A DNA stretch of 49,808 nt, from positions 1 through 49,808 of the forward strand of contig RXIJ01000032.1 in the NCBI GenBank assembly GCA_004212095.1, read 5' to 3'. The notes beneath the pieces are model-generated. The model was not told the DNA's origin, ran no database searches, and saw nothing but the letters and a program-made list of their open reading frames with translations. Position numbers and translations under genes: made by a program. Positions within the stretch are counted from its first letter, which is position 1; every line of letters begins with the position of its first letter. Below are positions 19,201 through 46,362 of this stretch, one piece after another. This stretch comes from Methanosarcinales archaeon. Its GTDB lineage: Archaea > Halobacteriota > Methanosarcinia > Methanosarcinales > EX4572-44.

Positions 19201-19211
19201 GTGGTTTCGTT

Positions 19212-19622: not shown

Positions 19623-19628
19623 CACGTT

Positions 19629-22307: not shown

Positions 22308-22365
22308 AACTATTTCACATTTGGTTATAAGAAAAATGTTGTATTTAAGTGTTTTGATATTGGGT

Positions 22366-22484
22366 GGTTGTAAAGTTATTGGATGTTGGCATTGTTTCGA
22401 CCTGGTTGTATATCCGGGTATAATATCTACTGTTCTCAGGTTCGAACAGACGAAAAAAATAACACCTGAGTAATTTGACAGCCA
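22366..22484 (-). repeat. ~135-bp dispersed element, copy 3 (reverse orientation, with an internal deletion), upstream of the pentaheme gene
   Basis: ggttgtaaagttattggatgttggcattgtttcgacctggttgta...taatttgacagcc aligns with 7175..7321. Confidence 0.8.
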
Positions 22485-22570
22485 CACAAAAAAGAAAGAT
22501 ATTTATGTGGTTATAGGTTTATGAGTAATAATAGTAATTATTAGTAAATTAATTAAGGGGTAATAAAAAA

Positions 22571-23239: not shown

Positions 23240-23306
23240 GATGATCTTTGATATTGATCATCTTTAATTTTTTTTAAATATTTAATATTTCTATATATGA
23301 TAGACT

Positions 23307-24080: not shown

Positions 24081-24108
24081 ATAACCATATAATCGTTGTT
24101 GATTTAAG

Positions 24109-28100: not shown

Positions 28101-31100
28101 AACAAGATCGAATTTGAAGGGGCTGAATTTAGAACCTCAGCGCATGCAAACATTTTTTGTGTAGATTGTCACACGCCACGCCAGGTATTTAAAGATATTA
28201 TTGTCAACAGAGAATCCTATACGTATAACTTTAGCATAGTATCCAACGTTACATGTCTAAACGCCACACTTGATTGGAATGGAAGCAGCACACTTGATAT
28301 GACCCTGTATGCACCTGATACAAACTATACAGGAACAAGGATAAACATCAGTTCACCACAACAGGGAAATTGGACTGCTATTGTACGTGATGTGAGTGGA
28401 GATGCAGAGTTTACCTTAACAATCGATGTGGACATGAAACATGGTGAAAAATGCAAGGCAAAAATTTGTGAAGAGTGCCACATCAGTGGTTTTGCTGATG
28501 CGCCGATTGTTTACGAACACATTCCTAATAAAAGCAGTGTGCCAACCAATGCTTCATGTGCATTATGTCATGCCCAGGGTGCACATCAGGCCACAACAAT
28601 TGAAATCTCAGCATCCCATTACCTTAAGAAAGAACCTATCGAGACAAGAGACTGCATCAGATGTCATACCGGTATTGTTGATGGCTGGGGAAATGCACCT
28701 GATCCAGGAGACCACGCGCACTACACAACAATTAACAAAACACTGGTAGCAAACCAGAAATGGAAGCTCGTTGACAACTATTCACTTACACTGATCGAAA
28801 CAACACGCGATGCTGCAATATTTAAATTTGAAAAAGATGAAGAGATGCTGCGTGAAGAATTAGTAGTAAAGGGTGATGTATTTAAATACGAAGTTCGCGG
28901 CATTGCACCAGGGAAGACAACCATTGTCAATCTTACGGTAAATAGGTTATTCACAGCAAAAGATCATTATGTTGCAGAGTTGTCAGGAACCATACTTGCA
29001 TCACGCATCCACCGTGAAACCGAAAACAAGGCTTGCTGGGAGTGCCATGACAGCCAATATCGTGCAAACGCGCAAGAAGGCACTGATTACTACGTTCTTA
29101 AAAAGGATATTGAAAACGTAACGCTTGCAAGGATGCCTGTTAACCTCACAGACAATGAAACCATCATGCTTGATATCGGAGAGTCTTTGAACCTTACATG
29201 CGGATACATCCTCTATGTTGCGGATGTAAACACCAAACGAGGTGGTGCAAAGCTTCAATTATACAAGAACGAAACACTGGTCGATGATGTGATAATAAAT
29301 GAAGGATGCTACTTTACATACGAAGAACGGTTGCTTGATCGAAAGATCGATGTTATCAGAGTAAAACTTGACCGTGTTTTTATCGGAGCAACTCCTTCTA
29401 TCATACTAAGTGACATTCGGGTTATTGCAGGGAAACAGAAAACATTGAGTGCAACAAAACAGGTACTGCAATCCGGAATGCCTCTGAAATACCTGCCTCT
29501 TGATAGTTACATAACAGTTGGAGAGAAACCTGGAACATTCCATGTGTACACACTCACACCAGGTGGATACAGTTCTGACTGCATTAGCTGCCATTCCGGA
29601 GATGGAGTTGCACCGGTTAAAATTGATATTGATCTATTCAAACGCGGTGTGCATGCTGGTTTGAAAAAAGATGCAGACTATTCTAGTTTCATCACCGATG
29701 ATGCAAACAAAGCATGCTGGGCATGTCATGGCAATGGCAGCAGTGGTGAACCGGTTAGACATCCGACACCATACTTTGGTAATTGCACGCCGCAAACCTG
29801 TATCCATTGTCATGGACACACAAAGTTTGGGGCAAAGCAGGTTCACACACACTATCAGGGTGCTGAAATCTCAACCACTTCCGCATGCTGGGATTGTCAT
29901 TCAAATATGTTACTGGAAGACAAGCACACACAAGCTTCAGCGTCTCATTATTCAACACGAGAAGACCTGTTAAACACATCAGATTGCAGTGTGTGCCACA
30001 ACAACGAAACCAATGCACCGGAGTGGGGTAGTGCCCCACAGGTTATAAAACACAATTCAAACAATACCTGTACACGCTGCCATGCCGGTGAAGGATTAAC
30101 TAATTTCCATGAGCGCGGCATAACCATAACACGGGAGTGTAAAGACTGCCATGTGAACAAAGAACGTTGTGATCAGCTCAATCTTACAGTCATCCGCACT
30201 CATTATCCAGGTGCACCAGAAGATAGTGCAGACACCATGAAAAATTATAACTACACGTGTGAGATGTGTCACAATGCGACAAATACCACGCTGCATGAAT
30301 CCCTTGAAGTCGTGCGCGGTAATCAGACAATGGGTTACTGCTTCCAGTGCCACAGCATCGAAGGAGAGTTTTCACACAAACCAGAAGCCCAGATAAAAGT
30401 ATTCAGGCATGGGTGCGGGATAAAAGTAAAATCCGGTTGCGAAGTTTGCCATGATCCAAAAGGCGTGAGTATATTCCATGCACCAAGCATGGTCGGTAAA
30501 ACAGGCATTGTTGGTGCAAGAAACTTTGCACTCGACTGCATTGAATGCCATAAAGAACACGAGGGAAGGGAATATCAACCATTTGAAGGCATCAGGTGCA
30601 TCGACTGCCATACCGAATATGGGGCATCCCATTACTCGACTGCAGAGATAGAGATTGTAAACAGAACCGAAACATGTGAGCTGTGCCATAACCCGGAAGC
30701 GGATTTTTATCACAATCTTACGCACATCGAAGCCAATGTCAGTAAGGAAGCATTAAGACCGTGTTATGTCTGTCACGGCGAAGAAGTTGATCTTTTCAAT
30801 GAAACACAACAAAAAGCAGTAGGCATCACCCGTGGAACTATGGCAACGATAGGCAACGTCTCAGACAAGCCGCTTAGAACCTGCAGCTCCTGTCACAATG
30901 CCACCGGTGAAAGCAGATTCCATTTTGACACATATTCACGTGGTACTGTGCAGAACCCTGACTGGAAGGACTGGACCCCCGGAAATATAACAGGATGCAA
31001 GGACTGTCACACATACCACGGCGGATACTCACCATTCAATGCAACAAATATGGGAACGGAAGGAAGATCCCCCAGGGGCACAGCACACGGTTTTGCACCA

Positions 31101-31583
31101 AACTGTACGATCTGTCATGGTGGTAATAACCCTATCAGCTTCCACAGTCTTGCAGCAACTGAATTCCTGCCACGCGTGGTTGTAACGCTTGAACCGGATA
31201 CAGTTCCTATAGGGGAGGTTAGCATTCTCAGAGTTACCGTAGTGCTTCCGCCATTGATGAAGATCACTCGTGCAGAGTACTTCATTGACATACCTGGAAT
31301 CAAAGGTAAAGGAAAGCACCTGAAATATATAATAGGAGAAAACGGTGAATCATCGGCAGTCGTTGGTGATACGATAAATACTTCTATGATGTCTTATGGA
31401 GATCATTTTATTTTCGTGCAGGTAAAGGATTCTGCGGGACACTGGAGCAAAACAGGTATCGGAATGTTTAAAGTAGTAAAGCCGAGGAAACTTGTGATAA
31501 CAGAATTTATAATAAAAATTTGTATACCTGCTACAATAATCATATTTGGTTTGTTGTATTTTATCTGGAGAAGGTTTAGATGA
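25152..31583 (+). CDS. giant multiheme c-type cytochrome (2143 aa, 35 CxxCH) with an S-layer-type domain and a C-terminal TM anchor
   Basis: It has a signal peptide (LLLIIGFLVLVSSTC). A non-heme ~330-aa beta-sandwich-like head follows (SEDMGATWDTL...GQKIFVAFHF...GWWIDDITVE). I hand-counted 35 CxxCH plus CQARGCH and CLTMCH variants. There are many NxS/T sequons, and the C-terminus reads IPATIIIFGLLYFIWRRFR. Confidence 0.9.
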   Translation: MKNACTGRTLLLIIGFLVLVSSTCTVIVRAETYTVTLGYGQTPYQLGYLSNGDTTGWNWWDTENGMQQKNLVLVSIMENTAPVSGLSPQSWIRDSTTKKSGGYSWNAEKDTHSWHYIDNYDTTGAPWQDIDLTGYPKTTSLSTKIFNWLKRLFIGAETSSDQTINLTFWNQYRMIDSRGFVKVSEDMGATWDTLAEYSGNNSGWVEESINLTQYSGQKIFVAFHFSSNNNNGGWWIDDITVEASDGNIIFSNGAETRAPKLTATIYYPHYDYAGDRFSTKSETIEISENYIHQLYYGTFTYPDDAYAGRYTIDFSTTIGSEDLSASTSFNTTLWGCQARGCHDSWSPQSDLSVRNPVTAMHPDNITSNVNGNCLTMCHSTYASQFLRATPIHLHDIKYGHEGGFIYGESGWVTIFNNSNTNVQLHRKTSVGRQIPQPKSTVPSHVTDADCTQCHTSFIHSQSGADTYDIAVPHSLNGSYLGRSGVHYNVSCEACHGIYYKSEGHGLIYPPFDGVTTLNDTIGDYEPEFMSYEAITKTYIIDVDSGTINVTVDGDDPLYEIFLTLIGPVDDVNGLQDLNTGDKWHGTYTVPSVNGTAIFAEGSKICYPIGDKLYTTSFNAVPKNGTWIAKIFSSSHGIFNYTITSNHPIQSKPVIHIPWNCSECHNPGASGDLSGAKTSRPIPLWDNRGLSYTHADTNDDGMDDVTCRLCHDSFHDISIRNCTDCHTQRPGGHAMADYYEMGYTGCMLCHNDPHVEPEAAAGGNCTDCHLEGGANATSGIPIVNKTGFFGSIHRNITGQFSQTNYTHISRVCWGCHVNYTQQLIDSSHTKRVTDLPACEDCHDTATPLNSEYLNQTPLQVREHQPNGEDIQTGSNCTICHNKSLTIAPPTENVKYPRAKNYISHYGRQRTDMWVVENNQVITHCSYCHTGGGREFYCVFVDPSNADITHGTNCTSCHGSGRIHDKSLEVPIMSKDNEACLVCHSNKIEFEGAEFRTSAHANIFCVDCHTPRQVFKDIIVNRESYTYNFSIVSNVTCLNATLDWNGSSTLDMTLYAPDTNYTGTRINISSPQQGNWTAIVRDVSGDAEFTLTIDVDMKHGEKCKAKICEECHISGFADAPIVYEHIPNKSSVPTNASCALCHAQGAHQATTIEISASHYLKKEPIETRDCIRCHTGIVDGWGNAPDPGDHAHYTTINKTLVANQKWKLVDNYSLTLIETTRDAAIFKFEKDEEMLREELVVKGDVFKYEVRGIAPGKTTIVNLTVNRLFTAKDHYVAELSGTILASRIHRETENKACWECHDSQYRANAQEGTDYYVLKKDIENVTLARMPVNLTDNETIMLDIGESLNLTCGYILYVADVNTKRGGAKLQLYKNETLVDDVIINEGCYFTYEERLLDRKIDVIRVKLDRVFIGATPSIILSDIRVIAGKQKTLSATKQVLQSGMPLKYLPLDSYITVGEKPGTFHVYTLTPGGYSSDCISCHSGDGVAPVKIDIDLFKRGVHAGLKKDADYSSFITDDANKACWACHGNGSSGEPVRHPTPYFGNCTPQTCIHCHGHTKFGAKQVHTHYQGAEISTTSACWDCHSNMLLEDKHTQASASHYSTREDLLNTSDCSVCHNNETNAPEWGSAPQVIKHNSNNTCTRCHAGEGLTNFHERGITITRECKDCHVNKERCDQLNLTVIRTHYPGAPEDSADTMKNYNYTCEMCHNATNTTLHESLEVVRGNQTMGYCFQCHSIEGEFSHKPEAQIKVFRHGCGIKVKSGCEVCHDPKGVSIFHAPSMVGKTGIVGARNFALDCIECHKEHEGREYQPFEGIRCIDCHTEYGASHYSTAEIEIVNRTETCELCHNPEADFYHNLTHIEANVSKEALRPCYVCHGEEVDLFNETQQKAVGITRGTMATIGNVSDKPLRTCSSCHNATGESRFHFDTYSRGTVQNPDWKDWTPGNITGCKDCHTYHGGYSPFNATNMGTEGRSPRGTAHGFAPNCTICHGGNNPISFHSLAATEFLPRVVVTLEPDTVPIGEVSILRVTVVLPPLMKITRAEYFIDIPGIKGKGKHLKYIIGENGESSAVVGDTINTSMMSYGDHFIFVQVKDSAGHWSKTGIGMFKVVKPRKLVITEFIIKICIPATIIIFGLLYFIWRRFR
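28731..29446 (+). other. S-layer family duplication (DUF1608-like) domain region inside the giant cytochrome
   Basis: There are two sub-repeats of the pattern seen in Methanosarcinales S-layer proteins: WKLVDNYSLTLIETTRDAAIFKFEKDEEMLREELVVKGDVFKYE and LNLTCGYILYVADVNTKRGGAKLQLYKNETLVDDVIINEGCYFTYEE...VKLDRVFIG. One CWECH lies between them. Confidence 0.55.
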
Positions 31584-33439
31584 ATATTGGTGGAGCGCTT
31601 CTATACACCAGTTTCATATTCACAGTTCTTGCTGTTATATTTTTAATTATCAAACAGGTAAAAATTGGTCTCTGGTCTGCTGGAATAGCAGCCGTCTCCA
31701 TTACCGCATCTGTGTTAGCATTGTCTTATGCATTCGTTTCACTTGATTTTAGCACATATTATGTCTGGATGTTTGGTAGTGACGTGCTTACGATTGGTTA
31801 CAGACTCGCAGCTATGCTGGTGGGGCAAGATGGAACATATCTTGTATGGGCATGGCTTTCTATTTTGATCACATTTATCAATCTCAAGCGACATAGACAA
31901 AATACAAACCAGTACGATAGCATTTATGCACTTGCTGCATGCAGTTTTTTACTGCTTCTAACAATTATAATGAATCCATTCAGATCTGTACTTATTGGTG
32001 AAGGTGCATCAATACCAGCTATCGGAAACAGCATCAACCCGGCACTTGTGGACATACTGATGCCAATTCATATTTTCACAGCGTTTGCAGCATACGCCTT
32101 TGCACTGGTCCCGGCAGCAGTTTCAATAGCATATCTTACAACAGGCAAAAAACATCGCATTAAAGACTATCTTCGATTATCCTGGTTATTTTTAAGTATC
32201 AGCATTATTTTAGGAGGAATATGGGCAAACAGGCTTCTTGGGTGGACAGGCTTTTGGCAGTGGGATCCAATCCAATCAGTAACACTTGCAACATGGCTAC
32301 TCATAACAGCAGCACTGCATGCGGAAATCAGGTTTAATGTCGGTGAGTACCGCAGACTCTTTCCGCTTCTTTGCATATACAGTTTCATAGGCTGTATATG
32401 TATTACTTTCGTAGCACGAAGTGGCATATATAATTCAATTCACACATTTTTAGAAACACCAACATTTTTAGTGCTTCTTATTTTTATTCTTATTATAATA
32501 ATTATATCAGCATTATTCGCTTTACTATTTAGTGAAAAAATCGCCATAAAATCATCACCTTTGAGTTCGGCCTTTGCCCCATACAACACCTTTTATTTCA
32601 CAATTCTACTGTTAATAGTTCTTGCCTTTATAGCGTTCTGGGGACCAAACATCTGTTTGGTTCTTCAATATATGGGATACAGGACTGTTGTATCTACTGA
32701 ATTTTATAATGGCATGTTATATATTCCAACTATTCTTTTGGCATATCTTACAGGTATCTGTATGTTGTATGGAAAAGTGAAAAATAAAATAATTGCCTAT
32801 GTAACTGCTATATTTCTTATCATAAATACCATACTTGTATTTGCGACACAATATAGCCCTGTGATACTTATTCTTCCAGCATTTTTTTTTATTACAAGCA
32901 ATACTCTGTTCAGGATAGTTCATGATACCAGGATAAAAAACAGAACAGTATTTATACATAGAGCCGGGGTCGGTATTATCCATCTTGGATTTGGTTTTGC
33001 ACTGCTCGGAGCTGTAGTCAGTATGTCTCTATCAACAGTTGATAACTTCAGTTTTGCTTTGAACGAAGAAAATGTTTACAAAGAAAATGCAGATGTTTGT
33101 GTGAAACTACTCGACTTTAAAGTTAACAAAGTTGGGTCTAACTGGATTCAAACCGCAAACATCGAACTAACTGAAGGCGACAGAACAAACAACCTGACTG
33201 CAACATTTATGAAACACCGCCAGTTTGGATTTGTCAGCAGACCTGCTGTAAAGTATAGCTTGTTATCAGCCACCATAGTTGACCTGAAAGGAATGCCTCC
33301 GTGTCGACTCGAAACAGGACACGTTGACCTGGTAGTTAACCGGTATCCACTTTTAAATGTATTATGGGCAGGATGTACTTTGCTGCTTGCAGGAGTTATC
33401 CTCACACTTCTATCCAGATTCATGCGCAGAAGACGATGA
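31580..33439 (+). CDS. ccmF: cytochrome c maturation heme lyase, CcmF family
   Basis: The WWD signature is LGGIWANRLLGWTGFWQWDPIQS. It is polytopic (about 13+ TM segments). Its start overlaps the giant gene stop (ATGA). Confidence 0.85.
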   Translation: MNIGGALLYTSFIFTVLAVIFLIIKQVKIGLWSAGIAAVSITASVLALSYAFVSLDFSTYYVWMFGSDVLTIGYRLAAMLVGQDGTYLVWAWLSILITFINLKRHRQNTNQYDSIYALAACSFLLLLTIIMNPFRSVLIGEGASIPAIGNSINPALVDILMPIHIFTAFAAYAFALVPAAVSIAYLTTGKKHRIKDYLRLSWLFLSISIILGGIWANRLLGWTGFWQWDPIQSVTLATWLLITAALHAEIRFNVGEYRRLFPLLCIYSFIGCICITFVARSGIYNSIHTFLETPTFLVLLIFILIIIIISALFALLFSEKIAIKSSPLSSAFAPYNTFYFTILLLIVLAFIAFWGPNICLVLQYMGYRTVVSTEFYNGMLYIPTILLAYLTGICMLYGKVKNKIIAYVTAIFLIINTILVFATQYSPVILILPAFFFITSNTLFRIVHDTRIKNRTVFIHRAGVGIIHLGFGFALLGAVVSMSLSTVDNFSFALNEENVYKENADVCVKLLDFKVNKVGSNWIQTANIELTEGDRTNNLTATFMKHRQFGFVSRPAVKYSLLSATIVDLKGMPPCRLETGHVDLVVNRYPLLNVLWAGCTLLLAGVILTLLSRFMRRRR

Positions 33440-33445
33440 TTGGTT

Positions 33446-33985
33446 TTATTGGACTTTGAGATGCCACCTTTTTTTAAATACCATAATAATATGGCATACA
33501 TCCTCATCAGCAATGAGTGATGCAGTAACACTCATATCAGTCATAAAAGATAATGCTCCTTCAAATAATCCATTGATATTTTTGCAATGCATGTTTCTCA
33601 TAGATCTGCCCCAGCCTCTATGCATTTTTTTTATCATGCATTCGTTAAGCTGCAATTTTGCTGTGTATTTCTTTTCCGTGTCTTTTCGATCTATAACTTC
33701 TATAGAATAACAATGTTTGACGTGCTCAATAAATTCTTCGATAGCAGTTTTTGGGTGTTTCCCTGTTCCAAGTTTTTTGCCGATGTGCTTACCCCTGTTT
33801 TTGCCGATATCATACAGCAATTCTTCTGTAACCTCAACACCATTTGCTTCTTCAAGTACTTCAATCACTCCACTAAGTAATTCAATCACTTCTTCTACAG
33901 GTTTCAAGTAGCCATTTTCAACAGCATGCTCGAGGTTTGAATGCGTATTATTCTGCTGAATATCAAAAGAGTTATGTTCTAACAA
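33446..33985 (-). CDS. V4R-domain-like small-molecule-binding protein
   Basis: The C-terminal pattern C..INGLFEGALSFMTDMSVTA...EDVCHIIMV resembles 4-vinyl-reductase (V4R) domains (C..G...G......C.f.i). Confidence 0.45.
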   Translation of the reverse strand: MLEHNSFDIQQNNTHSNLEHAVENGYLKPVEEVIELLSGVIEVLEEANGVEVTEELLYDIGKNRGKHIGKKLGTGKHPKTAIEEFIEHVKHCYSIEVIDRKDTEKKYTAKLQLNECMIKKMHRGWGRSMRNMHCKNINGLFEGALSFMTDMSVTASLIADEDVCHIIMVFKKRWHLKVQ

Positions 33986-34375: not shown

Positions 34376-37300
34376 ATGATGTTCCGACACCAGATAACCG
34401 GGTTACTGCAGGATGGTATAATACGTAAGATACACTTTATGAGCTGTGCTTCTATCCTTTTTCTCTCTGCCTGTATACTCATAATCTTCTGCGGGCTTGC
34501 CGGAGCTGCTGACTACGACGAAATCAGCGTCACCACTGCAAATGATGAAGCTTGGAGCACGAATCTTAGCAACAGCGTGAGCAATGTGGCCGGGAATATT
34601 ATTGTGAACGATGGCGCGGTGCTCTTGATTGGGAATGCGACGATACGGATGGCTAGCACATATTCTAACAAGTATTCTATCATAGTGTGTGACAAAGGCA
34701 CGCTTAACGTGAATGGTTCAACGATCACGCGAAACAACTACTACTACGGCTGGCGATATGAAAGCGGAAGCCATGGCAATGTTGCGAACAGTACGGTTGA
34801 GTTCTGTATTTATAATAATGGTTTTAAGATAGAAACGAATGAGGCTGTTCCTCTTTTCAATGTCACGTTTGATCATGGGGATGTAGGCTATTCATCGGAT
34901 TGTTATGGCATCTACATGAACTCAGCAAGCAATGCGAGTATCAGGAACTGCACGATAAAGACATCATCGGGACAGAGTTACTCGAATCGCAGATACACTT
35001 ACGGCATCTACATCAAGAACTCTGACTGCTGCAATCTAACAGGAAACACAGTCACAGACAGCGGAGACGATGGCATCTTTGTGCAGAACGGAGACAACGC
35101 AACTCTGCTCATCAACAACCTGTCCGGAAACAGGGAGGGGATTCGTCTTGATTCCTGTCCAAACAGCAACCTTAGCAGCAACATAGTTGTAGACAGCAGC
35201 AAACATGGAATAAACATCACGTCCTCTCAGAACTGCATTCTCAGATCCAATGTCATCATCAATTGTTCTAACTACTACCACCTCTATGTCACAGGAAACT
35301 ATGATCAAGACATCGACACCACTAACACTGTGAATGGGGGGCGGGTGTACTACAATTGCATAGATAGTAATGTTACGATCACTGATTCGAACATCGGGCA
35401 TGTCACAATCGTTGATTGCAGCGATGTGTGGTTTACTGGCTGCACGATACATAACGGAGACGGCATCCGGATCATCGGGTCTTCATCGAATGTGAGCATC
35501 AGGAACAGCACGATTGAGAACAACACTATGTACGGCATCAATCTCGAATCGACAAGTTGGAATAACATAACATCCGTAATCATTGAAAATAATACAAAGC
35601 AGGGGGTTTATCTTGCTGGTTCGAGCAACAACATCATAAACGACAGCGATATTCTGAATAACAACAATTATGGAGTTCATTCCGAAGGATCGAGCAGTTA
35701 CAATAATATTAATCACAACAATATCACAAACAATACCCAAGGAGGTATCTGTTTGGACGGGGCTGGGCATGACGACGTCACATATAATAATGTGTTAGAG
35801 AACCGTGGCGATGGCGGCATCTGCATAGGTACACATCATTATAGCTCCCTAAGCACGCAAAATACTCTTGCCAACAACACTATACTATCGAACAACAAAA
35901 CAGGTATTGGGGTATATACAAATTATAATTATTTGAGTAACAACACCATATCATCACTCAGCGGACAGTACGCACTGAAAGTCTCTTATGCCATGAATTC
36001 TTTTTATAATTACATCTGGCGAAACAACACAGCAAACGGCGAACAAATAAACTACTATTACGATGAGCACGACAAGATCACCGAACTGGATGATAACATC
36101 ATCGAAAATAAGTACCTCTCTGCATCCAATGTGAGCAATGTCGGAAAGATCACGCTCATCAATTGCACCAACCTCATCGTGAGAGACTGTGAATTTTCGA
36201 ATTCCAGTAATTATGGCATCTTTTTACGGAATTCTGACAACAATAACCTGACAAACAACACCATATCAAATAACTACAATGGCATCTGGCTGTACGGTTC
36301 ATCTGAGAACAACATCATTGATCTCAATACGATAAGTCCAAGCAACCGGTATGGAGCGTATTTCGAAGAAGATTCGGATTACAACAACATAAAAGACAGC
36401 AGTTTCGCAGCCATGACATTCAATGGAATGTACATATCCTCAGATCACACCACAATTACCAGCACAACGATCTCATCCGTGGATGAGTATGGACTATACA
36501 CCAAAAAAGCACATTACACTAATCTCACAAACATAACGATCACCTCAATATCATCACACGGCGTATATTTAGATACGTCCAACTATATCACTATAACAGA
36601 TTCAAACGTCACCGCAAACAACAAGGGCGTGAACTGTTTCAAATCAGATCACGCCGAGATCGCGAATACCACGATCAGAGGCGAAGACGGTATTTATATG
36701 TCAAAATCCAACTGGGGAAACCTCACGAATAACGCAATCGATGCAACACTGAGGGGAATATTCCTTAACACATCGAAGGATCAAAACTTAATAGAAAACA
36801 ACATCACAAACTACACGATTACAGGCGTCCTGCTTGAGGAGTACTCAACGAACACAACGATCATCGGTAACGATTTTCAGCGCAATTCCTCAGAGTTCGA
36901 CATCACCCTAAATGACTCAAACGGTTGTGTGATCGCACCGAACAACACAGTCACTGCGAATTACACTTTTTACCTTACAAACGACACCAGACTCGCAACA
37001 CTCGATACGGTATTCAACAAGACGAAGGTCTGCTACGAGGATACTTCAAATCTGACACTGATGTGGAGAATCGATGTACTCTGCTGGGACAACTACCACA
37101 AGGAAGCGATAATGTCCAATCTCACGGTGCAGTATAGCGATCTTAGCGATGCCAATGGATTACTGTGCTGGGAGGGGGAAATATCAGCGGGGGCAGCAGT
37201 TGAGGGTCAGCAGAACGGTCGGCTGAGCGGTAACCCATTTGATTACTGGGGACCGCCCACATCAGGTGATAACTGGCTTCCGATCATCGAGTACAAAGAG

Positions 37301-40300
37301 AACGTGACAGGGAAGACTACATACCAGTCGATGAACTGCACCGCAATTAGCAAGTGGGACGTGCTGTATGGTAAGACCAGGACATATCGGAATGTCACGA
37401 CCACGATCACAGAACCGGGAGTTACAATTCTCATAGACACCGGTTACACGCCAAACGGCAAGTGTTACTACTGCCATGTGGATAAATACGTGTTTACAAA
37501 CACGTCGCACTGGACGGAGTATGAAGAGACTGTCCTGGAGGGGGATGAGTACACCCCTGGGCGGTGCGTTGACTGTCACAATGAGAACGATTCCATTGAT
37601 ATTCCGCACGGAAACGAGAGCGGAAAGGATCTGTTGTACACTCAAAGCCCACAGTTATGCTACACCGGCAGAACTGGTGGTCTTAACTGCCACGGCGCGA
37701 ATGCAACACAGACGCGGCTTGTTCAGGAGACAGAGTTCAACCGGACGACCCATCACCCGCTCGGGGACGGAAAACTATCATGCAAGGCATGCCATGACAA
37801 TCATGGAACTGAGTATCGGTATGATCTGTTGAAGTATTATACAAATGGTACCAATCCGGACACTGGTTCATTGGAGCAGGGATATGACTCGAGTTATTAT
37901 GCGCTCTGCTTCGTGTGTCATCTCGAGGAAAAACTTGTGGCAAAGATGTCAGGCGAGACCGGTCATCTTGCAAACTACATGAACCAGACGAACTTTCGGG
38001 ATGAGTATTATGTCACATGGGGTTTCAGTTCCGGAGGTACTGGTGGATCTACAAAATTCAAGAACATCCATTCTCCGCAGGAGGAAGCAGGTTTATGGGA
38101 CACCACGCACCCAGAGTATAACTGCTATTCTTGTCATAACCCACATGGCAGCGATAATCCGGCAACGACGCGTTTTATAGCAAATGGGGGACCCTTAAAT
38201 TACACCTACATCACCAATGTCTCGCCTCCGGATAACATATTATGGGAAGTATTGAATTATGCGAACTGGAATAATACAACCTTAAACAAAGGCGGTGGAC
38301 TTTATCTGTCAGGGCCTGGGGCTGGTTGCGGTTGCCACCCCCCAGACTGGGCATCCCTTAAGACTAATTATTTCACCTACCGCACATACATCAACTACAC
38401 CCCTGCTGGCGGTGCGGGCTGCCTCGAGTGCCACGACAACAATGCTTCCGCGTACAACACCGACCCGATCCGTCCGATCGTGAACCTGACCGCGGTAAAA
38501 CTTGCGACACACACCAATCTAAGCGGTGCGTTCAGAACAGGTAGCATTCTTCAGGGAACTGACAAAAATTTCACTGAATGGCTCGAATATCGCGAGTACA
38601 CCATTCCACAGATCGCGAATATTACCGAAGACAATGCAATCTGTTGGACATGCCACTGCACCAATGGAACACCACCAAGTCCGTATTTCCATCCCGATCG
38701 AGCACTGAATCCGTACAAATGTGCAAAGTGCCATGGACCTTACTATGGTCAGCCGCCGCACACGCAGGGGCTTGTTGCAGCGGTCGATAACCATGGTCCG
38801 ACCACGAAGGGCGCGGAATCGATCCTTATCCAGACCAATGTCAGAATTGGCGGTTCATGTGACGACTGCCATGCGTCAAGCAAACTGCCAGATAATATGA
38901 TAGATACTTCCGATCCAAACGATGATCTCGAGGTCTGGAAATGGGGATCCGGAGAAGATGGTTATGGTGACGACAACCATTGGCGCCCTTATCAAGGCAG
39001 ATCAACGATGGGCGACGTCTCGCACTACGGACTGAACAAAACACAGGGGCTTGCACTTGAAATTGATAACCCGCTATTCGACACCTCTGACTGTCTCGTC
39101 TGCCATTGCAATTCCACAAACGGAACGATCTGGGGAAACGCCACAAACATCAGCGGGAATATGTACGGCGCTGATACCACTAACGTCTCTGAGTGTTACA
39201 CCTACTGTCATGTCAGACCTGATTGGGTCAGTAGTGTCAACGAGAGCACACTTACACACTTCCACAACAAATCGATATACGCAGGCGGCGGTCCGAACTG
39301 TGTCTTATGCCATGATGTGACTAGTATTTATGGTGTGCAGTCGCTCGTAAATTCCACTGCGATAGCAGAGGGCATTCACGGAAACGTGCTCAACAACACA
39401 CTCGTTCAGGAAAGCTACAGGATGGATAACAGGTCAAACCCGTGCTGGGGCTGTCACCAGAGCGATGGCAAGATCCCTAAAGGTATGGGTGACCGGAACG
39501 GAGCCACAGACGTAGATGGCAACGGAATCATAACAGTTGAGGAACTGCCCTACACCTGCGAGGACTGTCATGCACGAAGCGAGGCATGGAGCGGTGCAAC
39601 GAGCGATGGACATACGTGGGAGAGTGCAAGCGATCCCGCTCTCGGTCTGAGCAGGCTGCCCCCTGAGATTACTGCCCATTATCCGAACTCAACACATGTC
39701 AGGACGACCCATCACAGCGACAATGGCAGGTGCGTTGACTGCCATAACAACAGCTTTAATTCCGATAACAATGATACCGCTTACAAGGAACTTGGACACA
39801 CGATTTTCTCAGGTGTCTCACACTACGGTACCTCTAAAGATCTCCTCACCCCAACCAAGATGTGTCGATACTGCCACGATAACACAACAAGTGCAAGAGC
39901 CAACGCAACACTCTATGGCAATGCAACCGCAAACAAGCACGGCAACTTCACAGACGAAGCAAATCCGGATGACGGCTGTTACCGCTGCCACACACAAAAC
40001 GAGACACCTATTGACTTCCACAACATGAACGCAGGGGGTATCCCTGGGGATCCTGACTGCCTCAAGTGTCATAGCACCAACGGGACTTCGGAAAGACGCA
40101 GGATTGATGAGATTGCATATATGGGTGCGATCCACGCCGGGATGAACAATGCGAGTGTCGATGGCGACATCAACAAGTCGTGCTGGGTCTGTCATTTCCC
40201 GGAAGGTGTTGGCATGGATGAGCACAGCAACCGGCGAGAGCCTGCCTACCACTGTTACGACTGCCACAACAAAGACAACACCACAGTATTCGGCAATGTG

Positions 40301-41797
40301 AGCGATGCACCTGAGGTGCACAACCACTTCAAGAGTGGAACCTGCATAGAGGCATACTGGACACGCCCCACAGATTCAGACTCATGCATGGGCTGCCACG
40401 ACCAGTCAGAGATGCGCTATACATTCGATGAAAACGAGACGAATCCATACTTCACTAACTTCTCGATTACATCTCATTACGGCGACAATCGAACAGATAT
40501 TGTCACTACATATATCGAAAATGGCACGGAAGATTATTGCGGTTACTGCCATCAGAATATGTCGACTGTATTCGTAGAGCAGCAATCCATGAAAAATGTC
40601 AGCCACTATCATAATCAGGCGTGTGATGAGTGCCATAGCGTAGGTAGGCTCCACAGTGACACATTACAACGGGTACAAACTGATTCGAACTGCACCAACT
40701 GCCATGCAACATATGGATCTGTTCAGAAGGGCTTGAAGTATAAAATTAATGTCACAGCAGTAAATTTAGGAGTGCATGAAAATGTGAATGAGAACATGAA
40801 TTCAGTTGCAATGACAGTAGGGGATGTGAACAACTCCAAGTGTTGGGGTTGCCATGTACCAGAGGGAGCGTTACCGGAAGGTGGGCACAGAGACACCTTT
40901 AACAACGATGCATATCTCTGCTATGACTGCCACAACGGAACCAAAGCGTACCAGAACGTGACGAACGCAACCGCTGTTTACAACCACTTTAAAAGCGGCA
41001 TCAACATCTATGCGCGCACCACCGCGGAGACGAACTCGGAGTCCTGTGGATACGGCTGCCACAACCTCACCACCATGAAAGTACCTGGTTTTGATGCTGG
41101 CGGAAACGCAACCTATCTTCAGAACCTCTCACAGGCATCACACTACCCCAAAAGCCGTCCGGACATCGCCATTCAGAGCAATCTCTCAGACTGCACATGG
41201 TGCCACAGGAATTCGACAAACGAGTTCATTGAAATCTTTGAGTGTGCTGGTTCGCAGAATTACACCGAGAATATTCCGCATGCAACCAGAACAGAATCCT
41301 GCACCATCACAGAGTGCCACAACACAGGACGGATACACGACCAGAACCTGACAATCCCAACTATATCATGGGAGCAGGACTGCGGCAACTGCCATTTTGG
41401 ATTGGCTGATTCTGCTGCAAGTAAATATTATGTGAATGAGACGATGTTTAATTATGGCGTGCATGCAACTGTAAAATGTACAGAATGTCATATCTATACC
41501 GATCAGCCTGTTAACTGGCATCCAATCGAGGAATATACATGGAAATGGTGCGAGTGCTGCCATTCGTATCAGTCAGACTTAATCAACGAGAGCGATCGAC
41601 ACAATGTGACAGATAATCCACTAACATATCTGGTTGAGGAAACATGCGTACTCGAGATTGCAAACTGCACAACCTGCCATAATGCAACGGCTTATGAAAA
41701 TGCAAAGTCAAACTTCAACTCAAGCGCTGAACATGAGTGCAGATGGTGCCATGAATATCCGGACAAAGGCAATAAAACAATCCAGGGCTGGTATTGA
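34376..41797 (+). CDS. giant fusion protein (2473 aa): right-handed parallel beta-helix region + 31-heme c-type cytochrome region
   Basis: A signal peptide starts at alternative ATG 34439 (MSCASILFLSACILIIFCGLAGA). Residues ~45-900 are full of PbH1/NosD-like coils (N.T...N.I..N...GI.L..S..N.I..N). From CYYCH onward I hand-counted 31 CxxCH plus about 6 spacing variants. No C-terminal TM helix is present. Confidence 0.9.
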   Translation: MMFRHQITGLLQDGIIRKIHFMSCASILFLSACILIIFCGLAGAADYDEISVTTANDEAWSTNLSNSVSNVAGNIIVNDGAVLLIGNATIRMASTYSNKYSIIVCDKGTLNVNGSTITRNNYYYGWRYESGSHGNVANSTVEFCIYNNGFKIETNEAVPLFNVTFDHGDVGYSSDCYGIYMNSASNASIRNCTIKTSSGQSYSNRRYTYGIYIKNSDCCNLTGNTVTDSGDDGIFVQNGDNATLLINNLSGNREGIRLDSCPNSNLSSNIVVDSSKHGINITSSQNCILRSNVIINCSNYYHLYVTGNYDQDIDTTNTVNGGRVYYNCIDSNVTITDSNIGHVTIVDCSDVWFTGCTIHNGDGIRIIGSSSNVSIRNSTIENNTMYGINLESTSWNNITSVIIENNTKQGVYLAGSSNNIINDSDILNNNNYGVHSEGSSSYNNINHNNITNNTQGGICLDGAGHDDVTYNNVLENRGDGGICIGTHHYSSLSTQNTLANNTILSNNKTGIGVYTNYNYLSNNTISSLSGQYALKVSYAMNSFYNYIWRNNTANGEQINYYYDEHDKITELDDNIIENKYLSASNVSNVGKITLINCTNLIVRDCEFSNSSNYGIFLRNSDNNNLTNNTISNNYNGIWLYGSSENNIIDLNTISPSNRYGAYFEEDSDYNNIKDSSFAAMTFNGMYISSDHTTITSTTISSVDEYGLYTKKAHYTNLTNITITSISSHGVYLDTSNYITITDSNVTANNKGVNCFKSDHAEIANTTIRGEDGIYMSKSNWGNLTNNAIDATLRGIFLNTSKDQNLIENNITNYTITGVLLEEYSTNTTIIGNDFQRNSSEFDITLNDSNGCVIAPNNTVTANYTFYLTNDTRLATLDTVFNKTKVCYEDTSNLTLMWRIDVLCWDNYHKEAIMSNLTVQYSDLSDANGLLCWEGEISAGAAVEGQQNGRLSGNPFDYWGPPTSGDNWLPIIEYKENVTGKTTYQSMNCTAISKWDVLYGKTRTYRNVTTTITEPGVTILIDTGYTPNGKCYYCHVDKYVFTNTSHWTEYEETVLEGDEYTPGRCVDCHNENDSIDIPHGNESGKDLLYTQSPQLCYTGRTGGLNCHGANATQTRLVQETEFNRTTHHPLGDGKLSCKACHDNHGTEYRYDLLKYYTNGTNPDTGSLEQGYDSSYYALCFVCHLEEKLVAKMSGETGHLANYMNQTNFRDEYYVTWGFSSGGTGGSTKFKNIHSPQEEAGLWDTTHPEYNCYSCHNPHGSDNPATTRFIANGGPLNYTYITNVSPPDNILWEVLNYANWNNTTLNKGGGLYLSGPGAGCGCHPPDWASLKTNYFTYRTYINYTPAGGAGCLECHDNNASAYNTDPIRPIVNLTAVKLATHTNLSGAFRTGSILQGTDKNFTEWLEYREYTIPQIANITEDNAICWTCHCTNGTPPSPYFHPDRALNPYKCAKCHGPYYGQPPHTQGLVAAVDNHGPTTKGAESILIQTNVRIGGSCDDCHASSKLPDNMIDTSDPNDDLEVWKWGSGEDGYGDDNHWRPYQGRSTMGDVSHYGLNKTQGLALEIDNPLFDTSDCLVCHCNSTNGTIWGNATNISGNMYGADTTNVSECYTYCHVRPDWVSSVNESTLTHFHNKSIYAGGGPNCVLCHDVTSIYGVQSLVNSTAIAEGIHGNVLNNTLVQESYRMDNRSNPCWGCHQSDGKIPKGMGDRNGATDVDGNGIITVEELPYTCEDCHARSEAWSGATSDGHTWESASDPALGLSRLPPEITAHYPNSTHVRTTHHSDNGRCVDCHNNSFNSDNNDTAYKELGHTIFSGVSHYGTSKDLLTPTKMCRYCHDNTTSARANATLYGNATANKHGNFTDEANPDDGCYRCHTQNETPIDFHNMNAGGIPGDPDCLKCHSTNGTSERRRIDEIAYMGAIHAGMNNASVDGDINKSCWVCHFPEGVGMDEHSNRREPAYHCYDCHNKDNTTVFGNVSDAPEVHNHFKSGTCIEAYWTRPTDSDSCMGCHDQSEMRYTFDENETNPYFTNFSITSHYGDNRTDIVTTYIENGTEDYCGYCHQNMSTVFVEQQSMKNVSHYHNQACDECHSVGRLHSDTLQRVQTDSNCTNCHATYGSVQKGLKYKINVTAVNLGVHENVNENMNSVAMTVGDVNNSKCWGCHVPEGALPEGGHRDTFNNDAYLCYDCHNGTKAYQNVTNATAVYNHFKSGINIYARTTAETNSESCGYGCHNLTTMKVPGFDAGGNATYLQNLSQASHYPKSRPDIAIQSNLSDCTWCHRNSTNEFIEIFECAGSQNYTENIPHATRTESCTITECHNTGRIHDQNLTIPTISWEQDCGNCHFGLADSAASKYYVNETMFNYGVHATVKCTECHIYTDQPVNWHPIEEYTWKWCECCHSYQSDLINESDRHNVTDNPLTYLVEETCVLEIANCTTCHNATAYENAKSNFNSSAEHECRWCHEYPDKGNKTIQGWY
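34510..37080 (+). other. parallel beta-helix (PbH1/CASH/NosD-like) repeat region of the fusion protein
   Basis: It contains dozens of ~22-25-aa coils, for example NCTIKTSSG.., NLTGNTVTDSGDDGIFVQNGDNATLLINNLSGNREGIRLDSCPNSNLSSNIVVDSSKHGINITSSQNCILRSNVI. Confidence 0.7.
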
Positions 41798-41803: not shown

Positions 41804-42220
41804 ATGGGGTTAAAAAAAGTAATTATAGCTGTAATTGCGGTCATGTTAATCATAGGTATAGCCGGTGCGATGTTTTCTAACAGCCATGAATTATACAGCT
41901 ATAAAAATGAGACTGACCCGTGGAAGTTTTGCAACAAGTGCCATCCTTCATCAGTAGCAAATGTTGGTGCTGGTGTACATAGTGATGTGAATTGTTTATG
42001 CCATGGCTACAATCCAAACACAACTCCACCGGTTAATATGATACACAATCTTACCCGGAATATTTATTGTACCAATTGTCACTCAAATTACAATGAAAAA
42101 ACTGGTGATATTACACTCTATACAGGAATAAGTGGATTAAACCAGTCTGCACATTACATAATAAGTAGATCAGATTCCCAATTATATAATAATAGTATGG
42201 AGTTCTTCAATGAAACGTAG
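41804..42220 (+). CDS. small membrane-anchored c-type cytochrome (2 CxxCH + 1 CxCH)
   Basis: An N-terminal TM helix is followed by CNKCH and CTNCH, plus CLCH. Confidence 0.75.
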   Translation: MGLKKVIIAVIAVMLIIGIAGAMFSNSHELYSYKNETDPWKFCNKCHPSSVANVGAGVHSDVNCLCHGYNPNTTPPVNMIHNLTRNIYCTNCHSNYNEKTGDITLYTGISGLNQSAHYIISRSDSQLYNNSMEFFNET

Positions 42221-42977
42221 TAATATTATATTATTACTATTTGCCTTAATGTCGCTTGCAATGTTTGTGATGCCTGACATATTTTCAATGTTTAGTGGGC
42301 AGCACGTCTTTTATAATCAGATAAACTGTCAGAAATGCCATGAAGAAGAATACGGAGAGGTGTGGGCTACATCAGCAGCAGGGGATGCACACATCAGAGC
42401 TGCAAACAACACCAATTACACCACATACCTTGTAATTGGCGGTATTAATTATCATCAATCAAGTGGCACCATTAACACAGTAGAAGATAAGATCTGGACA
42501 TGGAATGGAAGTTTGTGGATCAATGACACAGAATCAAGATTGGAAAAGTTAGATGCGGATGGCAGCAATGAAATCGATGGAAATGAAATCTGCCACCTCT
42601 GCCATAATTCATCACTGGCAGATAAACACAGTCATGGACTTATCGTAAGAACGTGCGATGATGACTGGTGCCATGGAAATAGAAATTATACGTTCAATGA
42701 TCCTCAGTTATTCAACACATTGCCAACAGTTGATGCTGGAAATATTTTGAATGAATCGAACAATCTTCATAATGCATTCTATCTAAGTCTGGTTAATGAG
42801 CCAACCGGATTTGTGGCAGGTGAACCATTCAACCATACTCCAGGAAATCTTGCCGGTGATTATACTTCAAAGAGCTATCTGGCATGCATTAGTTGTCACT
42901 CAACTGTCCGGGTAGATATAACAATCGCCCAAAGTAGGTCCAATCATACAGGCGAAAAACGGCGAAAATATTCATAA
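42210..42977 (+). CDS. membrane-anchored multiheme cytochrome, paralog of 22571..23239
   Basis: It has the same N-terminus (LAMFVMPDIFSMFSGQHVFY). The motifs are CQKCH, CHLCH, CISCH and CDDDWCH, the last at the position of the paralog's CGDCH. Confidence 0.8.
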   Translation: MKRSNIILLLFALMSLAMFVMPDIFSMFSGQHVFYNQINCQKCHEEEYGEVWATSAAGDAHIRAANNTNYTTYLVIGGINYHQSSGTINTVEDKIWTWNGSLWINDTESRLEKLDADGSNEIDGNEICHLCHNSSLADKHSHGLIVRTCDDDWCHGNRNYTFNDPQLFNTLPTVDAGNILNESNNLHNAFYLSLVNEPTGFVAGEPFNHTPGNLAGDYTSKSYLACISCHSTVRVDITIAQSRSNHTGEKRRKYS

Positions 42978-43387
42978 ATCGCTCTTATTTTATGTGATAG
43001 TGTTGACGCTGCAATGCCTCCAAATATTGTGCTTAAAATATCCGGGATTTTAAGAGTGTTTACAATAAACTGTTGGAATGCGATGAAGTTTTTTGGATGA
43101 CACGTAATACCATGAATAATCACCGGTTTAAAATAGTAAATAAACAGATATCCGGTAAAAAGCGACATTACAGCAACCACTCCAAAATAGCATAGACCAA
43201 TTGCTGAAATATCCCTATTATTCTCTTTATTGTATCTGCTCAAAACCACAAGCCCTATTCCACTAACAAACCCGGCGATTACAGCAACAATTGGTGCAAA
43301 ATAATTAACAAGTAAAACAAATAGGCTATAGATAATACCTCCAGCAACAACACTTGCTGTGGTTGCAATCAAAAAATTCCTTATCAT
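42944..43387 (-). CDS. small membrane protein (about 4 TM), unknown function
   Basis: It has hydrophobic segments throughout. It converges on and overlaps the 3' end of 42210..42977. Confidence 0.5.
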   Translation of the reverse strand: MIRNFLIATTASVVAGGIIYSLFVLLVNYFAPIVAVIAGFVSGIGLVVLSRYNKENNRDISAIGLCYFGVVAVMSLFTGYLFIYYFKPVIIHGITCHPKNFIAFQQFIVNTLKIPDILSTIFGGIAASTLSHKIRAIYEYFRRFSPV

Positions 43388-44750: not shown

Positions 44751-44796
44751 CATAATTTGCAAAAGCTTATATTGTATTAAATATTATATTTTGATT

Positions 44797-45198
44797 ATGA
44801 GGTCGATTATTGTTGTTATATTATTCATGGTGCTGTTCTTTGCGTCTGGTTGTGTTGATAAGGATAAACCAGTCGTAACAACCAAAATAACAATCATGGA
44901 AACAGACGGGGAACCTCAAATCACACAACTACAGGTGGAAACAGACAGTGTAAACAGATTAGAAGAATATCGCGACATGTCACCACCATTTCCATGTGTA
45001 GCTCTTACCGTCATAAAAGACATGCGAGAAATCGGCTACCGACGATACAAAAGCTACACAGGCGAGGGTGAATACGAGATAACAACAGACCTTAGAACAG
45101 TACCAGATACTGGAAACACTGTCGATGTGATTGTAAAGGTGTATGATGGAATGGGTAACACTCTTTGCAAAAAAAGGACACCACTGCAGTGGCAATGA
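44797..45198 (+). CDS. secreted lipoprotein-like protein, unknown function
   Basis: The signal peptide has a lipobox-like FFASGC. A TATA-like aaaagcttatattg lies at 44761..44774. The stop overlaps the next start (ATGA). Confidence 0.6.
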   Translation: MRSIIVVILFMVLFFASGCVDKDKPVVTTKITIMETDGEPQITQLQVETDSVNRLEEYRDMSPPFPCVALTVIKDMREIGYRRYKSYTGEGEYEITTDLRTVPDTGNTVDVIVKVYDGMGNTLCKKRTPLQWQ

Positions 45199-45683
45199 AA
45201 GATATACCATACATCATAACAATGGTTCTGACAGGTGTAATTCTTATATCCAGTATCGTGTATATTGCAGCCACAACCAACGTTTTTACATCAAGCAATG
45301 TCACAAACCCACAAATAATAATACCTGAATTCGAAGAGATACCGGAACAAGCAATTGAATGTAATATCTGCCATAAGCAACCGGAAAACCTCACCAGACA
45401 TAAAGACGGGGGGAAATATTGTAAAGCATGTCATGGGGCAGACCTGCATGGCCTGCATACCAGTGATAAAACAGTGGACTTGTCCTGTCAATACTGCCAC
45501 ACAGACAATGCAACCACACCTCAACGTCTGCCTGGTCATGAAAGTATCTGTGATACCTGTCATAATTACTACGATCCGCTGAAGCCAAGCTCTGGGAATA
45601 TCATAGACATACATGTCAAAAAAGGCTATACATGCGATCTTTGTCACATACAGGATCTTCAAAGCCTCCATGAACGATCTTAG
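45195..45683 (+). CDS. membrane-anchored pentaheme c-type cytochrome
   Basis: The motifs are CNICH, CKACH, CQYCH, CDTCH and CDLCH. HKDGGKYCKACHGADLHGLH parallels HKEGGKYCFKCHGSDVHPIH in 21735..22307. Confidence 0.85.
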   Translation: MKDIPYIITMVLTGVILISSIVYIAATTNVFTSSNVTNPQIIIPEFEEIPEQAIECNICHKQPENLTRHKDGGKYCKACHGADLHGLHTSDKTVDLSCQYCHTDNATTPQRLPGHESICDTCHNYYDPLKPSSGNIIDIHVKKGYTCDLCHIQDLQSLHERS

Positions 45684-45777
45684 AATTCCAGCATCGCCGA
45701 TGGAAAACAAAAACTCAAGATTTATAAATGATGGGGTTGGAACTACATAATTAAATTATAAAAGGTTATAAATTTCA

Positions 45778-46362
45778 ATGAATAGTGTCAAAGGATTTAA
45801 AATAGGAATCATCGTAGTAATAATTGTTATTATCTCTACAGCAGTTATCATGTATCAACCCGATACAGATAAAACAAAAGCAAGCACAATAGATGAAATA
45901 ACCACACCGTTGCCAGCTCCAGTTACAACAGTAGTTGCAATACCTTCTTCCACGACCACTTCGCAGACAGATACAACATATAATTCATGTGAGAATTGCC
46001 ATTTAACAGATAAACGCAGCATACCTCAAGCAGATAGCCTGCACAATGAAATGGCACGATACTGCATGCTCTGCCATACGATAGAACACAACTCCCATCC
46101 AATGGAAGATGAGGGTGTTTCATGTAACGATTGCCATGGAGAAAAGGGTGCAGTTCCTACTCTGGAAGAGGGTGCAGTTAGATGTGGAAAATGTCATAGC
46201 TATCCAGACCCAATAGAAACATGCAATGGTAACTTAATTACAGTGCATCGTCCACGTGGTGTAGCATGTTCTAACTGTCACGGAGACGATGTGTTGGCAA
46301 TACACCTATCTGGTAAGAATGTGTACATTGAGGATATGCTGCAATATCTTGAGCGAACATAG
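45778..46362 (+). CDS. membrane-anchored pentaheme c-type cytochrome
   Basis: The motifs are CENCH, CMLCH, CNDCH, CGKCH and CSNCH. It has an N-terminal TM helix and a Thr/Pro-rich linker, and the same family layout as 45195 and 21735. Confidence 0.85.
   Translation: MNSVKGFKIGIIVVIIVIISTAVIMYQPDTDKTKASTIDEITTPLPAPVTTVVAIPSSTTTSQTDTTYNSCENCHLTDKRSIPQADSLHNEMARYCMLCHTIEHNSHPMEDEGVSCNDCHGEKGAVPTLEEGAVRCGKCHSYPDPIETCNGNLITVHRPRGVACSNCHGDDVLAIHLSGKNVYIEDMLQYLERT

Follow-up and report, generated by a model that had tools for sequence, protein, structure and literature searches.

The protein encoded at positions 34376–41797 (forward strand) of contig RXIJ01000032.1 from a Methanosarcinales archaeon (assembly GCA_004212095.1; the whole analyzed stretch of 49,808 nucleotides is hereafter the window) is, judging from sequence comparison, a type C multiheme cytochrome (MHC-C) of the kind described in methane- and ethane-oxidizing archaea and named after the anaerobic methanotrophs among them (ANME), in which a long right-handed parallel beta-helix precedes about 35 heme sites. 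We consider it probable, with some reservation, that MHC-C belongs to the large extracellular cytochrome system found in marine alkane-oxidizing Methanosarcinales, docked on the type B cytochrome (MHC-B), with the helix as a distal, non-catalytic binding tip. The architecture itself is already known, and the function ascribed to the family is inferred: Chadwick et al. 2022 (PLoS Biol; PMC9012536) defined the ANME MHC types A, B, and C, where type C has a “pectin lyase-like” N-terminus for which recognition of the partner cell wall was suggested by analogy with tailspikes. A preliminary description of the window, made from the sequence alone, was aware of no characterization of this combination of domains, which was incorrect as a matter of description (PMC9012536); the publication of the architecture in 2022 lowers its novelty but leaves the validity of the fusion unaffected. 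The additions of the present analysis are the topology of natural fusions, the charge and coil variation of the helix, the covariation of the MHC-C tail with small neighboring genes, and a linker confined to the family.

According to PMC9012536, type B cytochromes combine a peptidase M6-like N-terminus with an S-layer domain and a C-terminal transmembrane (TM) segment and always adjoin a dedicated CcmF2 gene; genes for a signal peptidase and for an “8x TMH” protein are often nearby. Two further accounts (PMC12180501, Sci Adv 2025; bioRxiv 10.1101/2024.05.23.595608) treat the MHC-C/MHC-B pairing and the MHC-D fusion; the M6-like domain of MHC-B is proposed there as the docking site of MHC-C, the helix of which would touch the partner. 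The natural MHC-C/MHC-B fusions bear directly on this topology. In four fused proteins (P0033, P0035, P0037, and P0038), MHC-C residues from ~20 to 2110–2372 are followed by MHC-B residues from ~700–764 to 2143, so that the S-layer domain and the C-terminal TM of MHC-B are kept, and the N-terminal ~700 amino acids (aa) of MHC-B and the C-terminal WKWCECCH/tail module of MHC-C are lost. The breakpoints fall within a module common to MHC-C (residues 2105–2391) and MHC-B (residues 763–1027); in the window, the two copies of this module (40688–41548 and 27438–28232, respectively) are homologous at 26% identity. In the ANME-2 locus L004, the genes for MHC-C, small1, and small2 (two small cytochromes described below) are followed on one strand, after intervening genes, by those for a peptidase, a multi-TM protein, and MHC-B, whereas the order in the fusion loci is p172, MHC-D, CcmF2. 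A deletion of ~7 kb, produced by recombination between the homologous modules of adjacent genes, is consistent with this arrangement and would explain the fusion. Because the anchor and the S-layer domain are located at the end opposite the helix in the fusions, this topology favors a binding tip at the end most distant from the membrane anchor rather than a cell-proximal spacer; the rigid spacer between the cell and the heme wire that the preliminary description had offered is disfavored, given that the fusions join the C-terminal end of MHC-C to the anchored part of MHC-B. The two segments that are lost on fusion are likely to form the non-covalent MHC-C/MHC-B interface.

The MHC-C gene is a single uninterrupted open reading frame (ORF) of 2473 aa (with an alternative start, M22, at 34439) that encodes a signal peptide, the beta-helix, a linker, and the ~35-heme region. 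By hydropathy, the sole hydrophobic segment spans residues 18–47 and ends in AGA followed by A, and no C-terminal TM was detected across the 2473 aa; hence the protein has a signal peptide and lacks a C-terminal anchor, as originally proposed. Hydropathy and the N-termini of homologs place the signal peptide at residues 1–44 (34376–34507, forward strand), with predicted cleavage at AGA/A (residues 42–45). On these features, MHC-C is a Sec-type secreted protein without a membrane anchor of its own. A Cys-Gly pair, unusual for a signal peptide, lies 5–6 residues ahead of the predicted signal peptidase site (CG[LV]A[GE]A followed by A; window positions 34490–34507) and is at least 90% conserved in the family (N-termini P0002–P0042). 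A lipobox was considered for this cysteine and found to be non-canonical: the preceding residue is F, M, I, or L rather than G, A, or S. The helix contains 44 N-x-S/T sequons, above composition-matched shuffles (z = 3.4), and the heme region (37463–41797) contains 68 compared to 21 in shuffled sequences (~3-fold excess, z = 11.9), with 25 conserved in at least 80% of the homologs. This excess fits a sequon-rich surface protein that is probably N-glycosylated. Self-BLAST of MHC-C detected no internal repeats at E ≤ 1e-3, and a scan with sigma-70 promoter and terminator models, which has no relevance for an archaeon, yielded hits at or under the shuffle expectation.

Immediately downstream of MHC-C, and on the same strand, are small1 (41804–42220; 138 aa, two CxxCH motifs and a conserved CxCH) and small2 (42210–42977; 255 aa, three CxxCH motifs and a conserved CDDDWCH), both with an N-terminal hydrophobic segment. 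They are accompanied by a convergent gene (42944–43387, reverse strand) for a 147-aa membrane protein with hydrophobic stretches at residues 5–52 and 59–86. Both small genes follow MHC-C in the window, in Argoarchaeum, in ANME-2 HF977, in CSMAG_887, and in a clade only 31% identical in MHC-C; in this distant clade, the 147-aa protein is encoded ~4.5 kb downstream rather than adjacently. The small2 family comprises 45 clusters, several of them on contigs with MHC-C. The last ~12 residues of MHC-C (window positions 41759–41794; loci L001, L004, L005, L019, and L030–L067) covary with these downstream genes, counting the loci with enough downstream sequence to judge. The tail PDKGNxTxQxWY occurs together with both small genes in five of five genome loci, in all of which the 147-aa protein is also present, and in 11 metagenome loci, with small2 only in one more; conversely, the tail YPD(D)(W) is found with neither gene in all six genome loci and all six metagenome loci. 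The tail LPD[KR]IFPEGVxV is associated with a small2-like gene only in two genome loci and one metagenome locus, and with neither gene in one genome locus, and the tail PDK(T/V)YE and its like, absent from the genome loci, with a small1-like gene only in three metagenome loci (one with only 560 nucleotides downstream). Because the tail type tracks the small genes in more than 30 loci, a functional link between the tail and the small1/small2 proteins is supported. The parts of the published accounts of MHC-C that were consulted make no mention of this covariation. The hydrophobic segments of small1 and small2 have AxA-like ends (IAGA followed by M and SLA followed by M, respectively) and may be cleaved signal peptides. 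These ends leave the label of membrane anchors unproven: the two small cytochromes noted in the preliminary description exist and are conserved partners of MHC-C, but the anchoring role proposed there does not follow.

The beta-helix itself, which extends over residues ~45–875 (34508–37000, forward strand), is recognized by Pfam, AlphaFold2, and Foldseek alike. The N-terminal third of the protein matches the Pfam models Beta_helix (E = 1.4e-55) and NosD (E = 3e-45). The AlphaFold2 model of residues 40–1035, built from an alignment with 22 homologs (mean predicted local distance difference test score, pLDDT, of 81.5; predicted template modeling score of 0.71), is all-beta, with short strands arranged as triplets through residues ~65–875 and an N-cap helix at 57–64. 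Laying the sequence over the predicted secondary structure gives ~30–32 coils. The rise of a beta-helix is 4.8 Å per coil, so the predicted rod would be roughly 15 nm long if its axis is straight. Two conserved ~40-residue inserts break the regular coils, YDQDIDTTNTVNGG at 309–322, where the model confidence is high, and NTANGEQINYYY at 551–562, where it is moderate (about 70). Thus, structure prediction and fold matching bear out the beta-helix assigned initially to residues ~45–900, with its end moved to near 875 and with a regular series of coils that is, contrary to that assignment, interrupted by the two inserts.

Among 22 sequences aligned over 825 aa of the helix, 90 positions are at least 90% conserved, of which D314 and D842 are the only charged ones and none is basic, the others being N, I, S, G, Y, and L; in homologs down to 32% identity, the helix shows no cluster of conserved acidic or basic residues. 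Across the family, the length of the heme-free N-terminus ranges between 730 and 1134 aa, with a steady heme count of 30–34, and the indels in the helix alignment are gains or losses of whole coils. In the Argoarchaeum ortholog (78% identity), for example, ~107 extra residues follow residue ~168 (window ~34880–35010, residues ~168–210). Tandem Repeats Finder identified no DNA-level tandem repeats that could explain the coil indels. The N-cap region (residues 51–150), the junction motifs, and the helix end are, by contrast to these indels, well kept in homologs. Homologous helices are also found in archaeal S-layer and dockerin proteins, and in one MHC-C variant (P0036, Methanosarcinaceae), DUF2341 and LamG domains precede the helix on its N-terminal side. 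The paucity of conserved charged residues, the variable length, and the whole-coil indels, together with these relatives and the DUF2341/LamG variant, argue that the helix is a length-variable binding or structural rod and not an enzyme.

Between the helix and the hemes lies a beta-rich linker of 155 aa (residues 876–1029; 37001–37462, forward strand), delineated by sequence search, alignment, and AlphaFold2. It is among the best-conserved parts of MHC-C (identity of 0.57–0.69), and a search of 1.84e9 representative sequences retrieved only eight proteins, all consistent with the MHC-C family or its fragments; hence, the helix/heme junction is a family-specific module rather than a seam. The AlphaFold2 model of the linker and the first hemes (42-sequence alignment) has a mean pLDDT of 50.7, which is too low for fold matching. 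The cytochrome part, previously placed from residue ~1000 onward, does lie C-terminal to the helix but begins beyond this separate linker, with the first CxxCH at residue 1030. The multiheme region (residues 1030–2388; 37463–41539, forward strand; motif count and Pfam) is followed by the C-terminal module that runs from WKWCECCH to the PDKGNKTIQGWY tail (41540–41797, forward strand) and was delimited by comparison of homologs. The originally reported count of 31 CxxCH motifs was reproduced (the last one at residue 2455), to which four non-canonical motifs are to be added: CxxxCH at 1607 and 2224, CxxxxCH at 2309, and CxCH at 1318, all kept in homologs (CYTYCH, CGYGCH, CxxxxCH ahead of GRIHD, and CGCH), for a predicted total of about 35 heme sites. 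Pfam matches in the heme region include MtrC/MtrF domain II/IV and the cytochrome c7/c3 families, with PF22113 reaching 92.5 bits (cutoff of 30) over four stretches; the full-length OmcA/MtrC models of NCBIfam did not match the MHC-C protein.

Under the scheme that we favor, electrons would exit the cell via MHC-B; MHC-C would dock non-covalently, through its C-terminal heme module and its tail, on the outward-facing N-terminus of MHC-B (peptidase M6/MAM-like), with small1 and small2, where present, probably serving as adaptors; the ~35-heme chain would carry the wire tens of nanometers out from the S-layer; and the beta-helix would form the distal, tailspike-like tip that holds the wire on the polysaccharide of the partner bacterium or of the consortium matrix. 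The surface-binding role of the helix, one of the two initially entertained, is accordingly the favored one, in agreement with the hypothesis already published and with the fusion topology. Several observations weigh against this scheme. Docking on MHC-B is derived from gene fusion and gene neighborhood only, and the mechanism from comparison; in Methanogaster, MHC-C is not adjacent to MHC-B and lacks small1 and small2; the tail/adaptor association is phylogenetically clustered and therefore reflects few independent events; and the deletion that formed the fusions could have removed small1 and small2 incidentally. Furthermore, the nearest heme is ~15 nm from the helix tip, so that, if the tip binds the partner surface, the contact would need to be made laterally or inside the matrix.

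Three other roles of the helix have to be weighed against a distal binding tip. It appears very unlikely that the helix acts as an enzyme, be it a polysaccharide lyase, epimerase, or hydrolase, in remodeling the capsule or extracellular polymeric substances and is fused to the hemes for co-localization only. An enzyme would fit the InterPro-style annotation as “pectin lyase-like” and the Foldseek searches of PDB and BFVD, which produced matches exclusively to right-handed beta-helix proteins, at the top PL6 alginate lyases, AlgE4/AlgG C5-epimerases, GH87, and many phage tailspikes and depolymerases (including the HK620, CBA120, Det7, and K1 lyase tailspikes). However, although the Foldseek probability is ~1, the TM-scores are 0.1–0.3 and the identity is ~10%, so these proteins share a fold class rather than a family; phmmer searches of PDB found no match for either the helix half or the heme half, and thus none to solved enzymes; the NosD model scores 65 bits compared to a cutoff of 300; and both the lack of a conserved acidic or basic cluster and the whole-coil indels throughout the helix speak against catalysis. 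Self-assembly, whereby the helix, as a tailspike-like trimer or an end-to-end or lateral polymer, would bundle heme chains into a cable, seems unlikely: many of the tailspike neighbors are obligate trimers, and the conservation of the N-cap region, junction motifs, and helix end would suit such a scaffold, but the 44 helix sequons could hinder tight lateral packing, and AlphaFold2, run on a single chain, predicts neither a coiled coil nor a trimerization neck.

The helix as a cell-proximal stalk that positions the heme wire ~15 nm out, past the S-layer, with small1 and small2 as the membrane anchor, is quite unlikely. The rod length calculated from the coil count and the variable coil number suit a length-tuning spacer, MHC-C has conserved partners in small1, small2, and the 147-aa membrane protein, and the signal-peptide Cys-Gly could, in principle, be a lipidation site. 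Nevertheless, the N-terminus has an AxA site of the signal peptidase I type, the residues ahead of the cysteine do not fit a lipobox, the hydrophobic segments of small1 and small2 look cleavable, and, in all fusions, the anchor and the S-layer domain are at the C-terminal end, as is the tail that covaries with the small genes. An assembly or frame artifact that joined two separate genes can be practically dismissed, because the junction (residues 851–1050) is among the best-conserved stretches of MHC-C and the same collinearity recurs in about 40 clusters and in 24 genome loci from different projects. Accordingly, the fusion of a beta-helix to a cytochrome, of an extracellular type, is genuine and conserved, as the preliminary description maintained.

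Extending the distal-tip reading, MHC-C might be an exchangeable “plug” that recognizes the partner or the matrix at the end of a modular wire in which MHC-B, small1/small2, and MHC-C follow one another and together hold more than 100 hemes; the helix would confer specificity and diversify through recombination and as coils are gained or lost, the tail would co-evolve with the adaptor cytochromes, and fusion (MHC-D) would repeatedly replace the docking interface. This is a speculative and, at present, doubtful proposition; if it holds, the tailspike-like helix sets whom or what the archaeon wires to. Electron transfer from alkane-oxidizing archaea to sulfate-reducing partners is still unresolved, and the mode of coupling in Ca. 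Argoarchaeum is debated; the present locus puts the full MHC-B/MHC-C apparatus in an Argoarchaeum-type genome. Together, the distal placement of the helix, the covariation of tail and adaptors, and the fusion breakpoints translate the published idea of docking into specific candidate contacts among the C-terminal module of MHC-C, small1/small2, and the N-terminal domain of MHC-B.

Protein searches yielded about 40 clusters that share the collinear architecture (31–78% identity, 85–99% coverage, 30–34 CxxCH), including Ca. Argoarchaeum ethanivorans AEth_01367 (78%), ANME-2 cluster HF977_16080, and Ca. Methanogaster C4B59_04635, with 56–65% identity to the ANME-2 and Methanogaster proteins over 88–99% of the length. 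A scan of species-representative genomes identified 24 MHC-C loci in 23 genomes, from Argoarchaeum, Ethanoperedens GB37, the ANME-2 cluster, Methanogaster, ANME-3 HMMV2, and Methanoperedenaceae FeB_1. Overall, the hosts are Ca. Argoarchaeum, Ethanoperedens, ANME-2a/b/c, ANME-3, and some Methanoperedenaceae, so that the domain order indeed occurs in the ANME- and Methanoperedens-type genomes where it had been suggested to look for it. Ethanoperedens GB37 carries two MHC-C paralogs ~16 kb apart (L022 and L029; LR991653.1, 973500–1012318). The window is syntenic, gene for gene, with the Argoarchaeum scaffold RPGO01000030, the neighboring proteins being 87–94% identical, with 0.10–0.23 synonymous substitutions per site (dS), and its first 17 kb consist of housekeeping genes. 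By gene content and synteny, the locus is chromosomal and belongs to an Argoarchaeum-type (GoM-Arc1) archaeon, a close relative of Ca. Argoarchaeum ethanivorans; an origin from a Borg or another extrachromosomal element, Borg assemblies having been named earlier among places to search, is unlikely on the same grounds and was rejected. Compared to the Argoarchaeum ortholog (L001, 10001–17602), MHC-C itself has a dS of 0.57 that is mosaic, with segments at 0.16–0.29 and others at 0.7–1.3 and a ratio of nonsynonymous to synonymous rates in these segments of 0.1–0.43. Rather than positive selection, this pattern points to recombination with divergent alleles or to an assembly that is chimeric between strains.

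MHC-C is located within a 25-kb island that contains 90 CxxCH motifs. All on the forward strand, this island includes genes for a 4-heme cytochrome (22571–23239; heme motifs and Pfam), an S26 signal peptidase (23307–24080; Pfam), a multi-TM protein (24109–25155; Pfam) that matches the “8x TMH” gene of PMC9012536, an ANME MHC-B of 2143 aa with 35 CxxCH motifs (25152–31583; Pfam and heme motifs), an InhA/M6-like MAM domain, an S-layer domain, and a C-terminal TM at residues 2113–2141, and the CcmF2-type heme lyase paired with MHC-B (31580–33439; Pfam/NCBIfam and PMC9012536). This gene set (22571–33439) exactly reproduces the type B locus as given in PMC9012536. Between CcmF2 and MHC-C is an ORF of 179 aa (33446–33985, reverse strand) without a hydrophobic segment, the Argoarchaeum homolog of which has no Pfam match on record and which is kept near MHC-C or MHC-D in six loci (L001, L004, L012, L019, L023, and L025). 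Further small cytochromes, with five hemes each, are encoded at 21735–22487 (reverse strand), 45165, and 45778 and have N-terminal hydrophobic or lipobox-like segments; relatives of the gene at 45165 adjoin MHC-C or MHC-D in most loci, and a lipobox protein (FASGC) is encoded at 44791 (region 44791–46362, forward strand). Directly upstream of the island (17994–21663, forward strand) is a partner-switching, stressosome-like gene set that consists of two STAS proteins, two RsbT/RsbW-like HATPase_c_2 proteins, a SpoIIE phosphatase, and an RsbU_N+GAF protein. A 369-aa protein encoded at 8440–9549 (forward strand) contains three PASTA domains (E = 1e-34), which are typical of bacterial peptidoglycan-sensing proteins, on a contig that is otherwise archaeal. 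Rfam and tRNA scans of the window detected one tRNA-Ile only, distant from the MHC-C locus.

Among the known systems, ANME MHC type C is the closest: the window protein shares the giant archaeal cytochrome with a large heme-free, pectin lyase-like N-terminal beta-helix, the absence of an S-layer domain (no PF07752, which is present in the neighboring MHC-B) and of a C-terminal TM, heme motifs in which additional residues separate the cysteines, a Methanocomedenaceae-type locus shared with MHC-B and the cytochrome maturation gene CcmF2, and 56–78% identity to deposited members. It differs in coming from a GoM-Arc1/Argoarchaeum-type ethane oxidizer, a group not covered in depth by PMC9012536, and in gene order (MHC-B, CcmF2, MHC-C in the window; MHC-C first in the ANME-2 locus L004). 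With ANME MHC-D it shares the helix, the linker, and most of the heme region but, being unfused and retaining the WKWCECCH/tail module, is not an MHC-D. The resemblance to NosD, a periplasmic copper-binding beta-helix protein, lies in the PbH1/CASH repeat type, which accounts for the Pfam match; identity with NosD was rejected given the TIGR04247 score (65.5 bits compared to a cutoff of 300) and the lack of nos gene context, no nos-type families being found among the window ORFs scanned against Pfam. In contrast to the PL1, PL6, and AlgE/AlgG enzymes, the MHC-C helix does not conserve the catalytic acid/base and Ca2+-binding residues. MtrCAB/OmcA of Shewanella is comparable in the MtrC/MtrF domain II/IV matches (92.5 bits) and in the analogous role of carrying electrons across and beyond the outermost cell layer, whereas MHC-C lacks a beta-barrel partner, carries about 35 hemes instead of 10, and combines an archaeal S-layer setting with an appended beta-helix. 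Finally, the receptor-binding tailspikes and depolymerases of phages, although they have no detectable sequence relation to MHC-C, which lacks conserved catalytic residues and has hemes in place of a virion adaptor as its fusion partner, show the same fold at the far end of an extended appendage: a long right-handed parallel beta-helix that binds polysaccharide along its length.

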